Shown here piece after piece: positions 245 through 64,000 of a DNA stretch of 64,000 bases (positions within the stretch are counted from its first letter, which is position 1; the number at the start of each line of letters is the position of its first letter). The translations under genes were made by a program, and so were the position numbers. Below the pieces are notes generated by a model that was not told the origin of the DNA, ran no database searches, and saw nothing but the letters and a program-made list of their open reading frames with translations. Source of the DNA: Octopus vulgaris (lineage: Eukaryota); contig OX597817.1 in assembly GCA_951406725.2 (NCBI GenBank), positions 20,274,001 through 20,338,000 of the forward strand, written 5' to 3'.

Positions 245-515
245 AAACAATTGCAGCGTGGAAGGTGTTTGTAAGCCATTTAAGAAATACACAAAAGCCG
301 TTCGATTCACTTTAACATATGAGTTTAATTTGTCAAAATATTTTCGTCGCTATAAGACCGAGACCTGTTCACTGACAAAAATCCGTGCAGCACGGATTTT
401 TGTCTTATTGCGACGAAAATATTTTGAGAAATTAAACTTATATGTTGAAGTGAATCGATTGGCTTTTGTGTGTTTCTTAAATGGCTTACAAACACCTTCC
501 ACGCTGCAATTGTTT
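245..515. repeat. ~270-bp palindrome centred at 389; probable inverted PLE terminal repeats
   Basis: AAACAATTGCAGCGTGGAAGGTGTTTGTAAGCC… is mirrored by …GGCTTACAAACACCTTCCACGCTGCAATTGTTT. The centre is GACAAAAATCCGTGC-A-GCACGGATTTTTGTC. Confidence 0.9.
329..379 (-). ncRNA. putative minimal type-I hammerhead ribozyme, G3-C8 core variant
   Basis: Minus strand reads TTTGTCA-GTGAACA-G-GTCTC..GCGAC-GAA-AATATT-T-TGACAAA: 7-bp stem I, stem II with one mismatch, palindromic stem III. Confidence 0.6.
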
Positions 516-2110
516 TCGTTCCAGCATACGATCTCAGATCAAATCACTTGCTATGCAAGTACATCTCTCTCTCTCTCTCTCTCTCTCTCTCTCTCTCTGT
601 ATATATATATATATACATACATACATACATATATATTTATGTGTGTGCGTTTGTCTCACCAACATCGCTAGACAACCGATGCTGGTGTGTATACGTCCCC
701 GTAACTTAGAGGTTCGGCAAAGAGACCGATAGAATAAATGTTAGGCTTATAACGAAGAAGTCCTGAGGTCGATTAGCTCGGTTGAAGGCGGTGCACTAGC
801 ATGGCTGCAGTCAAATGACTGAAACAAATAGAAGAATAAAAGAATATATATATGCTTCAACTCCATCGTTCATTGCACAGTGATAACAGAACTCCTAGGG
901 CTTTCTTCAATAATGCACTCCCAGATACACATAGACACGCTAACAAACACGGTTACTCTCTGCTCAAAGCTATCCAATCACTTACCCCGTGTTTGGCAAC
1001 CGTAACGAGTTATATTGTTAGGAGGAGAACAATTTACAACACGAAGATCACAAAATATTGAATTTGTCTGTATAATCGAAAGATAAAACTGCCTTTACAT
1101 ATATTGTATTGATCTCGAATTCATAAAATATGTGAGTATGTATAAACACACCTAAACCTATGAATATAGATATATATCTATGCGTGCGTGTATGAATGCG
1201 TTCGAGTCGGTGTATGAATGTAAATATGTCTGTGCGTGCATGATGTGTGATGTACGTGTGTGTGTGTGAGAGTGTAAGTGAGGGAGATAGAGAGATAAAG
1301 AGAGAGAGAGAGAGAGAAAGAAAAAGAGAAAGAGAGAGAGAGAGAAAGAGAGAGAGAGAGAAAGAGAGAGAGATAGAGCATGTGTGTATGTATGAATATG
1401 TAAGTATGAACTTAAATTAAGTTTAGTTTTAGGTTGATATGAAGAGATTTAAAATAAATAATTTTACTCATATATGCATTACAAAAATATTGTGCATTAC
1501 ATTGCATGTCTAGTTCGGAAATTCTGTTATGGAACCAATATAAATTTGATATTTATTAGAATGTATGACATATTCTTGACACTAAATCAATATTTTAGCG
1601 AACTGTAGTTGAAAAATATTTGAAAAATATATCAATCAAGTAGTCTTTTATCTCTTCGAAGAAATATATTTAAAACTATAAAAGGAGATTATCAAGTAAG
1701 GTAAAGTGATTTTGATGAAAAAAACACGATTTGTAGACACGTAAAATATTTTCAGTATGAACATATACTAAATTATTGAGAAGCGAGTGCAAACAAGAAT
1801 ATATAAGCATACACTTATGCTACATATATATTGACATACTTGTTTGTGCCTATGAACATATGAAAAGATCTCGCTCTGACTTTGTATATACGTATACACT
1901 CGCTTATTCAATTATATCACAATATAATTTCATATATGCATTAGATCGTCAAGTTTTGTAGCCCTACTTTCAAGGTTTTGCATCTTTTCAAAGCTGTTCT
2001 AAGTAGGTGGCTGAAGCTTAAATCTGATATTCCACTTATGTTATGTCTCCGACCATCTTAGAAATACACTCCACGCTACTGCATAATGTAAATGGTATAA
2101 GTAAGTAGTT

Positions 2111-2346
2111 AAGGCGGCGAGCTGGCAGAAACTCTAGCACGCCGGGCCAAATGCTTAGCAGTATTTCGTCTGCCGCTACGTTGTAAGTTCAAATTCCGCC
2201 GAGGTCGACTTTGCCTTTCATCCTTTCGGGGTCGATTAAATAAGTACCAGTTAGGCACTGGGGTCGCTGTAATCGACTTAATCCGTTTGTCTGCCCTTGT
2301 TTGTCCCCTCTGTATTTAGTCCCTTGTGGGTAGTAAAGAAATAGGT
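2111..2346 (+). mobile_element. SINE family B
   Basis: AAGGCGGCGAGCTGGCAGAA head and GAGGTCGACTTTGCCTTTCATCCTTTCGGGGTCGAT core. GGTATAAGTAAGT occurs on both sides (2094 and 2344). Homolog at 56125-56535. Confidence 0.85.
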
Positions 2347-2586
2347 ATAAGTAAGTTGTGGGTTGTCATTTCTTTGATATGATACTTGTATTGTGTATAG
2401 ATGGGGTATGTTGACTATCTTCTGTTAATATTCTAACACGAATTAATATCTGTACAGTACAGTTACAATTGCTACAGAGGTTTATTAAAACAGAATACAT
2501 AATTAACTTCAGAATGCTTAATTGCTGTATTTTGCCAATAGTTGTCATGATCAATACACGAGTGCATGTGTGCGTGCACACACCCA

Positions 2587-2690
2587 TATCTATCTATCTA
2601 TCTATCTATCTATCTATCTATCTATCTATCTATCTATCTATCTATCTATCTATCTATCTATCTATCTATCTATCTATCTATCTATCTAGC
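2587..2690. repeat. (TATC)n microsatellite, 5' flank of Tx1 element
   Basis: Direct reading. Confidence 0.95.
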
Positions 2691-2714
2691 TAGCTAGATA
2701 GCTATATATCTGTC

Positions 2715-62259: not shown

Positions 62260-62576
62260 TATATGACGATTTCTTGCCAAGAGAGAGTGGTTTTGGTTTG
62301 AGTCAAGTAAACAAGAACGTTTGAAGCTGCGTGAGTAACACGTAAGTTAGCTGGAAGATGAGACGCGTCTGGGTCACGCAGTGCAAGAAGCACAGCAGGG
62401 TCGGTGGCTGAATTAGGATGATGTCGAAAAGCTGAAGTTGATGTGGTCTGATAGGTGGCGGTTGAGTGAAGGGCATTTGAAAGATCTGATCCAGACTGCG
62501 TATGATGTGCATCCATCTCCAGCGAATCTCAAACAATGGGGTATCCTAGAGAGTCCACATTTCCACTTGTGTGGGA
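62260..62576 (+). mobile_element. fragment of an RLE-type non-LTR element (HERO/NeSL-like)
   Basis: QQGRW…LMWSDRW…LIQTAYDVHPSPANLKQWG…HLCG resembles the pre-zinc-knuckle region of these elements. Confidence 0.6.
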
Positions 62577-62714
62577 AGTATTTGTTTCCGGTATTTTGGC
62601 GCTCTATAATGAGGGCATTCGAATCATAACTGCGAATATAATAGACTGAATCACACGTGTGTTTGAGAAAATGTTAAAATCTGGCGTGCGGTTCAGTAAA
62701 TTGTATTCAAGACA

Positions 62715-62793
62715 AATTCTACTGAAGAGCTGCAGATATATTATGTAAGTAAAATTGCATATTCCATTAACAGCGAAACAATTGTCTACAATT
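62715..62793 (+). ncRNA. minimal type-I hammerhead ribozyme (copy 1)
   Basis: AATTCTA-CTGAAGA-GCTG…CAGC-GAA-ACAATTGT-C-TACAATT: intact core, GUC site, one stem I mismatch. Confidence 0.75.
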
Positions 62794-63220
62794 AATCTAC
62801 GTTTTTGTTATTTTTTCATTTGTCCTGCTCGTTTACGTTCATAGTTGTGGTAATTCTCCTTGGAAACAATTCTTGGTGGTTCATACCATAGCGGATCTAT
62901 CTTTAGCGCAAGAGACGACCACATAGTGGACATTCTCTTATATTTGTTTATTAATTTTAACTGTATCCCTGGTTTTTATGCGCTAAACAACTTCGTGTTA
63001 AATTGATATTATTATTCAATTAATATCCAATTTTTTCACCCTTATTTTTGATTTTAATTATACTTCAGTAAATTGTTTATGCAGTATTTGTTTCGGGAAT
63101 TTTGACGCACTATAACGAGGGCATTCGAATCATAACTGCGAATATAATAGACTGAACCACACGTGTGTTTGACGTTATGTTAAAATCTGGCGTGCGGTTG
63201 AGTAAAATGTTTTCAAGACA

Positions 63221-63299
63221 AATTCTACTGAAGTGCTGCAGATATATTATGTAAGTAAAATTGCATAATCAATTAACAGCGAAACAATTGTCTTGGATT
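63221..63299 (+). ncRNA. minimal type-I hammerhead ribozyme (copy 2, A9U mutated)
   Basis: AATTCTA-CTGAAGT-GCTG…CAGC-GAA-ACAATTGT-C-TTGGATT. Confidence 0.6.
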
Positions 63300-64000
63300 C
63301 ATCTACATTTTTGTTATTTTTCATTTGTCCTGCTCGTTTACGTTCGTAGTTGTGCTAATTCTGCTTGGAAACAATTCTTAGCGGATCTATTTTTAGCGCA
63401 AGAGTCGACAACATAGTGGAAACTCCCTTATATTTGTGTATATATATATATGTATACACACATATATATGTATATATATATTTCACCAAATCTTACCTTG
63501 TCTAAATTCAATATTTAATTTTAAAAAAAAAGATAATTTGTATAACTGCAAGATGTCATCTTCTGTTGAGTGCCTTAACGAATTTTCATTAGAGGTGTCG
63601 GATTTGCAACATTTTCAACAATTCAGTTGTTGCAAAGTTTTCAGTGATTAGACGTAAGTACATTATTGTGTACAATAATTTTGCTCCTCAAAAATACGCT
63701 CGTAAATATACATTTGAAAAATGGCTGTTAGGAAGATTTAATAAATTTCAACAGAAGTAAAGAAAAATTAAAAACTGGACACTGAAAACAATTTGAATTC
63801 CATTTAAAATGTTGGCCTTTCATTCAATTCCGTCGATGTTTTGTTTATGACATATGTTTTAATATTTGTGTGTTCGCGTCCTGGATTATGTTATTGGACT
63901 GTTATTGGAATTTCACTGTACAGGTTTTGATTATGCAACTCTTATATGAACTTATATGGGTGGGTAAGCGGTTATTTTCGTGTACGTGTGCTTGTATAAA

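Follow-up and report, generated by a model that had tools for sequence, protein, structure and literature searches.

Do four short repeats of unrelated sequence in one stretch of octopus DNA carry minimal hammerhead ribozymes, some with an exchanged tertiary pair between positions 3 and 8 of the core, and what kind of element brought them there? The stretch comprises 64,000 nucleotides of Octopus vulgaris (GenBank assembly GCA_951406725.2, contig OX597817.1, positions 20,274,001 to 20,338,000; hereafter the window, numbered from its first letter). It is microsatellite-rich and belongs to an assembly of 2.8 Gb in 227 contigs. We designate the repeats by their core positions as family A (62722, +), family B (372, −), family C (30744, −), and family D (10009, −). 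The reading that we favor, with a probability of about 0.72, is that the four repeats are remnants of terminal repeats of Penelope-like elements (PLEs) and likely non-autonomous derivatives, each with a minimal type I hammerhead that is predicted to need dimerization for cutting after H17, a reaction that is probably weak and aided by protein.

Family majorities restore the hammerhead motif

We collected 30 loci per repeat from the same genome; they were chosen as those most similar to the window copy, and the set is hence biased. The family majorities, proposed beforehand as the check on the motifs, restored GAAA, ACGT, and the stems, yielding complete minimal type I hammerheads. The majority of family A has a stem I of 7 bp, the core CUGAAGA, a stem II of 4 bp with a loop of 38 nt, the palindrome ACAAUUGU, and C at H17, and that of family B a stem I of 7 bp, the core GUGAACA, an extra G, a stem II of 5 bp, AAUAUU, and U at H17. 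In family C these elements are a stem I of 3 bp, UUGAAAA, a stem II of 4 bp, ACCGGU, and A at H17, and in family D a stem I of 4 bp, CUGUUGA, an extra A, a stem II of 4 bp, ACGU, and A at H17. All four families have a palindromic stem III, and B and D share one additional nucleotide between A9 and stem II. The consensus N3-UGA-N-N8-A followed by GAAA and UH, with stems I and II and open ends in stem I, is present in the majorities of A, B, and C, which also have A at position 6. This A is absent from D, which is thus a variant rather than a consensus hammerhead because of its U6.

Every copy in the window is damaged, those of C and D most severely. Family A (62581..63438, +) consists of ~1.7 head-to-tail copies of a 506-nt unit without an open reading frame (ORF) and ends at a (TA)n tract. 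Its first hammerhead (62715..62793, +) has the canonical C3-G8 core, a stem II of 4 bp with the 38-nt loop, the palindrome ACAATTGT, C at H17 (62786), and one mismatch in stem I; in the second (63221..63299, +), with its core 506 nt downstream at 63228, A9 is changed to U and stem I contains mismatches. Family B is a fold-back insertion (245..567) with its left arm on the − and its right arm on the + strand, a tail of ~50 nt on the right arm only, and its left end at a (TA)n tract. The hammerhead of the left arm (329..379, −) has a stem I of 7 bp, the core G3-U-G-A-A-C8-A9 at 372-366, an extra G at 365, a stem II of 5 bp with one mismatch in this copy, GAAA at 345-342, AATATT at 342-337, and U at H17 (336). 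The right arm (386..567, +) is without a ribozyme because an 18-nt deletion takes out the core. The family C hammerhead (30712..30747, −) has the core U3-U-G-A-A-A8-A9 at 30744-30738, ACCGGT at 30721-30716, and A at H17 (30715); this copy reads GGAA where the family has GAAA. The family D hammerhead (9978..10013, −) has the core C3-U-G-U6-U-G8-A9 at 10009-10003, an extra A, and A at H17 (9982), with both stem II and the palindrome damaged.

Most of what the original prediction had read from the window thus stood. Three of its cores, CTGAAGA at 62722-62728 (+), GTGAACA at 372-366 (−), and TTGAAAA at 30744-30738 (−), were found where it had placed them, whereas CTGTTGA had been shifted by one position and lies at 10009-10003 (−). 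The palindromes ACAATTGT, AATATT, and ACCGGT are present in the window; the ACGT supposed for D is restored by the family majority, but the window copy reads ACAT. The common layout of GAAA and stems holds for the family majorities and not for the window copies of C, with GGAA and a broken stem II, and of D, with a broken stem II. Each of the four repeats ends at a (TA), (TG), or (CA) tract, as had been noticed. Of the covariant pairs, G3-C8 in B and U3-A8 in C were confirmed, but positions 3 and 8 of D form an ordinary C-G pair and its oddity is U6.

A strict descriptor requiring a Watson-Crick 3-8 pair, A6, GAAA, the palindrome, H17, and both stems was passed by two of the four window motifs, A at 62722 and B. 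The window copy of C failed because it reads GGAA, and that of D because of ACAT, the broken stem II, and U6. Forty block-shuffled windows gave a mean of 0.33 matches at this setting; at a stricter setting B alone passed and the shuffled mean was 0.025. When the window was compared with Rfam at E values of up to 10, only microsatellite noise was returned and no hammerhead family.

The 3-8 pair is matched between families

To obtain an unbiased sample, we took 54 evenly spaced 10-kb pieces (540 kb). A descriptor blind to positions 3 and 8, of the kind that the original prediction had suggested, detected six C-G, two G-C, and one U-A motifs when A6 was kept (shuffled means 0.33, 0, and 0). These nine Watson-Crick matches compare with a shuffled mean of 0.33, and the two non-Watson-Crick matches with ~1.4. 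Without the A6 requirement, five C-G matches were found (shuffled mean 0.17). One of the G-C matches, L132, lies outside family B and is possibly due to chance.

A census of all collected loci, from which 12 duplicate loci were left out, gave 203 matches. They form 13 multi-member families, of which eight have C-G, three U-A, and one G-C, while a further family of two members is tied; the majority is thus Watson-Crick in 12 of 13. Six of the nine families beyond the original four have C-G, two have U-A, and one is the tied family. Among 19 singletons, the pair is Watson-Crick in 11 and not in 8. In all four families that depart from C3 (B, C, E, and F), the partner is matched, G3 with C8 and U3 with A8. 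The predicted covariation therefore holds between families; within family B there is none beyond neutral decay.

Family F (U3-A8) has the layout of family B with compensatory stem changes. The homology of the two is marginal. Twelve full-length alignments to B copies gave colinear matches to the profile, scoring 5-10.6 bits (E 0.19-8.6 per Mb), and the search in the reverse direction gave no match. Control profiles with A, C, and D gave nothing save B versus C, at best 4.5 bits. The families are probably divergent kin rather than independent inventions.

At least nine further multi-member hammerhead families were noticed in ~1 Mb (L120, L123, L125, L034, L162, L023, L172, L088, L130, L121), some of them with odd-length palindromes of 9 nt. 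One family (L120, L123, L125) has a CCGAAGA (U4C) core and an extra U before GAAA and lies right behind the PLE endonuclease of another clade.

Copy number and the U6 core of family D

BLAST of the 540-kb sample detected 9 B arms, 10 D copies, 1 C copy, and no A copy, which extrapolates to ~47,000 copies of B (21,000-89,000), ~52,000 of D (25,000-95,000), ~5,000 of C (130-29,000), and fewer than 19,000 of A in the genome. Across the whole genome, a 20-letter B pattern that includes G3-C8 had 6,460 exact matches and a 28-letter D pattern had 17,348; the reversed-pattern controls gave 0 for both. Given their cores, B, C, and D would be missed by a CUGANGA search, as had been predicted.

Among the first 100 of the 17,348 exact D matches, position 6 was U in 95 and A in 3, while position 7 was U in 46, A in 23, C in 18, and G in 13, which is the signature of N7 in hammerheads; the remaining core bases are fixed. 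A sister family has the canonical core CUGACGA with the same stem II and ACGT. Since N7 varies, U6 stays, and the sister family is canonical, the register is fixed and U6 is likely a derived, fixed change. Reading D in another register, with UUGAAGA as the core, was rejected: stems I and II are then lost, and the variable base would fall at a position other than N7.

Families C and D lie behind PLE coding sequence

The 3′ end of a D element, a portion of its pseudo-long terminal repeat (pLTR), occupies 9889..10030 (−) and terminates in a TA/TG/CA tract. Upstream on the same strand are the 3′ untranslated region (UTR) of the PLE that ends in D, together with its decayed GIY-YIG region (10099..11026, −; 70% identity over 1045 columns to L111) and a frameshifted reverse transcriptase (RT)/thumb remnant (12121-11115, −), which was detected by tblastn with PLE-type proteins (E=1.4e-16; also E=4e-9). 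A GIY-YIG remnant precedes D in L111 too. L121 was considered as the parent of D and rejected, being another PLE lineage (E) with its own U3-type motif, in which D is a separate insertion behind a TA tract. A 5′-truncated D fragment in the window (50997..51108, +) starts inside the ribozyme and lacks the core.

Family C lies in the 3′ UTR of a Neptune-like PLE (30658..31263, −), which contains an internal (CTT)n, ends at a TG/TA tract, and can be aligned to L122 out to 31263. A GIY-YIG C-terminus is located ~500-650 nt upstream of C, co-oriented and contiguous, in L083 and L085/L122. In both C and D, the hammerhead is thus preceded on its own strand by RT and then a C-terminal GIY-YIG, the arrangement of an endonuclease-bearing (EN+) PLE. 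In L074, an ORF at 228-815 (−) with a KIWFQN motif, which we take to be homeobox-like, lies within ~1 kb of a C copy.

Lineage E shares U3-A8 and ACCGGU with C, while its stems I and II are wholly different and its protein is ~50% identical to that of C. Stem II shows a compensatory change between L166 and L178, and the motifs of L121 and L129 are damaged. The ORF of L121, related to C, matches proteins with RT, PF26215, and GIY-YIG; Pfam gave a weak RVT_1 match for this ORF and a weak GIY-YIG match for L125, and a search of PDB with the L121 ORF returned nothing relevant. Homologues of the neighboring PLE protein include molluscan records. At L121:2553-6076 lies a young, near-full-length PLE of lineage E, interrupted by one frameshift, whose inverted terminal copy is 99% identical. 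Translations of C, D, and E contain a CxxC-type Cys-rich linker before GIY-YIG. Such a linker is a motif of the Neptune clade and, taken with PMC8557442, suggests that C, D, and E may belong to that clade.

A tract was present no more than 30 nt from the 3′ end in 8 of 16 B, 22 of 26 C, and 18 of 23 D copies for which an end was found, compared with 8.5% of random 32-nt windows; A was not counted. Different hammerhead families often stand tail-to-tail in one (TA)n tract (L027, L064, L080, L081, L083), so that such tracts appear to act as shared insertion hot spots.

Families A and B have the insertion traits of PLEs

The 506-nt unit of A occurs in circularly permuted copies, its longest stop-free stretch is 67 codons, and 5 of 28 other loci align across 595-686 nt, that is, over more than one unit. 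In its tandem arrangement, its lack of an ORF, and its type I hammerhead, A is retrozyme-like. Its 3′ ends fall into two clusters by distance from the core, while its 5′ ends are variable. In 16 hand-picked copies, the closing pair of stem II was A-U in 8, G-C in 7, and unpaired in 1; this covariation was equalled by 4 of 500 shuffles, which ignore the kinship of the copies, and the same subfamily pattern was seen over 31 copies. A search of sequencing runs listed no RNA run as containing A. GIY-YIG fragments near A in L032, L042, and L054 were rejected as traces of a parent because they are part of other insertions.

Most B copies are ~200 nt long and often form inverted pairs with a tail on one arm. 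Three long copies (L012, L182, L188) have a common 5′ block beginning ~420 nt upstream of the core, as measured in L182. The GIY-YIG fragment near B in L011 was likewise assigned to another insertion and rejected as a parent. Many B copies, those of unbiased samples too, start ~14-25 nt upstream of the core (window 385), possibly a transcription start or a hot spot of 5′ truncation. At ~3900-4000 of L123, a B tail stands directly behind the 3′ UTR of a PLE arm of an unrelated clade, reflecting a template switch or a nested insertion. B was also found in contigs from four public runs with three species labels (159-337 contigs per run); their RNA origin is a guess, and they indicate presence and not expression. 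The core at 366-372 showed no difference reaching 10% in these contigs, and family-level differences inside the motif sit in loop II or keep G-U pairs.

Both A and B are tandem or inverted 5′-truncated insertions with one-sided tails and microsatellite targets, and these are insertion traits of PLEs as described in the accessible part of PMC8557442. The PLE/retrozyme origin that had been proposed for the repeats was therefore borne out, given the PLE coding remnants immediately upstream of C and D, the tandem ORF-less organization of A, and the hallmarks of PLE insertion in B.

Predicted folding and mechanism

For individual natural copies of A, B, and D, the predictions gave stem II a P of ~1 and stem I a P of 0.4-1.0. 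The 15.1-16.1 pair had P≤0.02 in the monomer in all four copies tested. The predicted energies of the palindrome duplexes were −6.4 (A), −0.2 (B), −8.3 (C), and −1.7 kcal/mol (D). In the D monomer, the core and the GAAAC strand were predicted to pair into a long hairpin. Read-through transcription of the B fold-back in the window would yield an RNA folded into a long hairpin of −179.7 kcal/mol with the ribozyme buried.

By analogy with the known class, cleavage at H17 would depend on dimers: two transcript copies could pair via the palindrome (ACAAUUGU, AAUAUU, ACCGGU, or ACGU) and build stem III, while bases 3 and 8 would form a tertiary Watson-Crick pair. Master elements could therefore drift from C-G to U-A or G-C while activity is kept, and copies once inserted would decay neutrally. 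The copies in the window themselves are likely inert, because of core and stem damage in C, D, and the second A and, for B, because its fold-back is predicted to trap it in a hairpin.

Weighing of the alternatives

It is hardly credible that the motifs arose by chance or as by-products of DNA palindromes in AT-rich repeats. Two of the four window copies fail the descriptor, Rfam recognizes no hammerhead, and 8 of 19 singletons have a non-Watson-Crick 3-8 combination, all of which would fit such an origin; yet the family-level results contradict it, namely the shuffle controls, the recurrence of one layout in 13 families, the position just behind PLE ORFs, and the compensatory stem changes. It is also very improbable that A and B are classical retrozymes forming circular RNA, or elements resembling short interspersed elements (SINEs), with hammerheads acting as monomers instead of PLE-type dimer ribozymes. 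The more-than-unit copies of a circularly permuted, ORF-less 506-nt unit in A and the absence of an ORF link for A or B would be expected then, whereas stem III is predicted to be unable to close in a monomer (P≤0.02), and PLE traits are seen in the fixed 3′ and variable 5′ ends, the inversions, the one-sided tail, and the (TA)n targets (PMC8557442, accessible part). A 2026 preprint, in the text available, derives animal retrozymes from PLE pLTRs anyway.

A more serious rival, though still an unlikely one, is that the variant motifs, above all D with its U6 and perhaps B, descend from hammerheads and cleave hardly or not at all, serving as a folded RNA handle for the PLE protein or being passengers of which the stems alone matter now. 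In the accessible text of PMC11167929, mutating the hammerhead did not alter in vitro insertion by a PLE protein, and none of the reads had its end at the cut site. D reached tens of thousands of copies with U6, G3·G8 is in excess in an older B subfamily, both sides of the cut site are present in inserted copies, and the D monomer is predicted to tie up its core in the hairpin. What speaks against this rival is that the 3-8 partner is matched in four of four families departing from C3, a pair that belongs to the catalytic fold and not to a plain stem, and that the other core bases of D are fixed while N7 varies.

Several results weigh against the reading of the repeats as PLE remnants and derivatives with cleaving hammerheads. 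None of 30 A loci had an RT/GIY-YIG ORF contiguous with A, so that no autonomous parent is at hand, and none was contiguous with B in the B loci, including 17 chosen for long 5′ ends and two extended by 1.6 kb; the latter two shared no sequence beyond the 5′ block and had no ORF. A and B are therefore at most non-autonomous derivatives. The single C copy that was folded, L080, has a stem II change and did not form this stem, and the predicted dimer helix of B is very weak (−0.2 kcal/mol, versus −1.7 for D). Compared with the 6,460 exact G3-C8 copies of B, 199 had a single change at position 3 and 401 at position 8, and 19 had changes at both (one of them, L200, a chance match), where 12.4 were expected. 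Eight of these 19 are Watson-Crick against ~7 expected; seven of the eight are the double transition to A-U, and none is C-G. Because the doubles are near expectation, the internal variation of B at 3-8 reflects neutral decay after insertion, as judged from these counts. A canonical C3-G8 subfamily of B was rejected for the same lack of C-G doubles; only the isolated copies L227 and L228 were found, and they form no family. Among the first 100 single changes at position 8, 35 gave the G3·G8 mismatch, and C3 made up 14 of the first 100 at position 3. The G3·G8 copies mostly lack the markers of the young subfamily (present in 1-2 of 18, versus 11 of 20 G3-C8 copies), and this excess in an older subfamily suggests that a mismatched B master may have transposed, unless G3·G8 is the relic of an intermediate.

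We therefore offer only tentatively, as a possibility that we would not bet on, the further proposal that the G3-C8 hammerhead of B and the U6 hammerhead of D both work as natural ribozymes, hitherto undescribed and each fixed at copy numbers from the thousands to the tens of thousands, that B and F come from one ancestor, and that the 3-8 pair was swapped among C-G, U-A, and G-C, possibly via a transposing G3·G8 intermediate.

Other repeats in the window

An inverted repeat at 26007-26554 has 198-nt arms that are 96% complementary and a 152-nt spacer; no hammerhead motif was found inside it. Dispersed repeats of SINE-like appearance are located at 42-189, 3528-3675, and 52751-52898, at 25382-25681, 52139-52438, and 61364-61663, and at 2111-2348 and 56131-56534.

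Comparison with known hammerheads

The hammerhead class and the U-A swap are known, and what appears to be new is the high-copy G3-C8 (B) and U6 (D) core variants, as ribozymes predicted from sequence. In the literature searched, which did not extend to Lunse 2017, the largest survey of PLE hammerheads, or Hammann 2012, no natural hammerhead with G3-C8 or A6U was found. The work of Lunse, Weinberg, and Breaker is said, going by its title, to concern small PLE hammerhead variants that cleave as dimers, and it may list G3-C8 or U6.

PLE hammerheads, U3-A8, and the extra nucleotide were in print in 2011-2014 (PMC3088659, PMC4209133; cited, like the papers below, from their accessible parts). The minimal hammerheads of PLE pLTRs (Cervera and De la Peña 2014, PMC4209133) resemble those of the octopus in the type I layout, the short palindromic stem III, the frequent U at H17, the frequent extra nucleotide between 9 and 10.1, the presence of many families per genome, mostly as solo truncated copies, and the U3-A8 families (Schistosoma Cercyon); their cleavage in vitro is weak. 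The cores in Fig. S3 of that paper (56 motifs by its legend) are CUGANGA, UUGANAA, and one UUGAAGA, and none is G3-C8 or U6, unlike B and D. The palindromes of the present families (4-8 nt from A15.1) are at the long end, and loop II of A has 38 nt.

Retrozymes of animals without LTRs (PMC7229834; bioRxiv 10.64898/2026.07.22.740005) are like A in having an ORF-less, low-GC tandem unit and a type I hammerhead. The unit of A is 506 nt versus a typical 150-450 nt, its insertions are mostly 5′-truncated and of ~1 unit, and no canonical contact between loop 1 and loop 2 was recognized in it. The preprint, whose main text includes no mollusc, derives such retrozymes from PLE pLTRs.

Natural core variants (Perreault 2011, PMC3088659; Naghdi 2020, PMC7151607) also include U3-A8 covariation; G3-C8 and A6U are not named in the accessible text of either. 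Those variants are rare single sequences, whereas G3-C8 and U6 are fixed here in families of thousands of copies. Among PLEs, cleavage of the Poseidon hammerhead is protein-assisted and dispensable for insertion, and C3G/G8C there gives partial rescue (PMC11167929). Families that succeeded with weakened cores offer a direct test of whether Penelope elements need ribozyme cutting at all, and, whichever reading holds, censuses based on CUGANGA overlook tens of thousands of motifs in this genome. The engineered C3G/G8C swap, which rescues activity (PMC9901934, PMC8495972; G3-C8 as an engineered swap also in PMC3884650), is the same as that of B. The swap was made there in laboratory mutants; if B cleaves, it would be the natural G3-C8 case for a tertiary pair for which the evidence so far comes from laboratory swaps and U3-A8 variants. 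Should D cleave, position 6 would be freer than mutagenesis suggests, perhaps with an altered metal preference like that of the A6C hammerhead of phage Bcep176, which has low Mg2+ activity and prefers Mn2+ (PMC3088659; PMC7151607).

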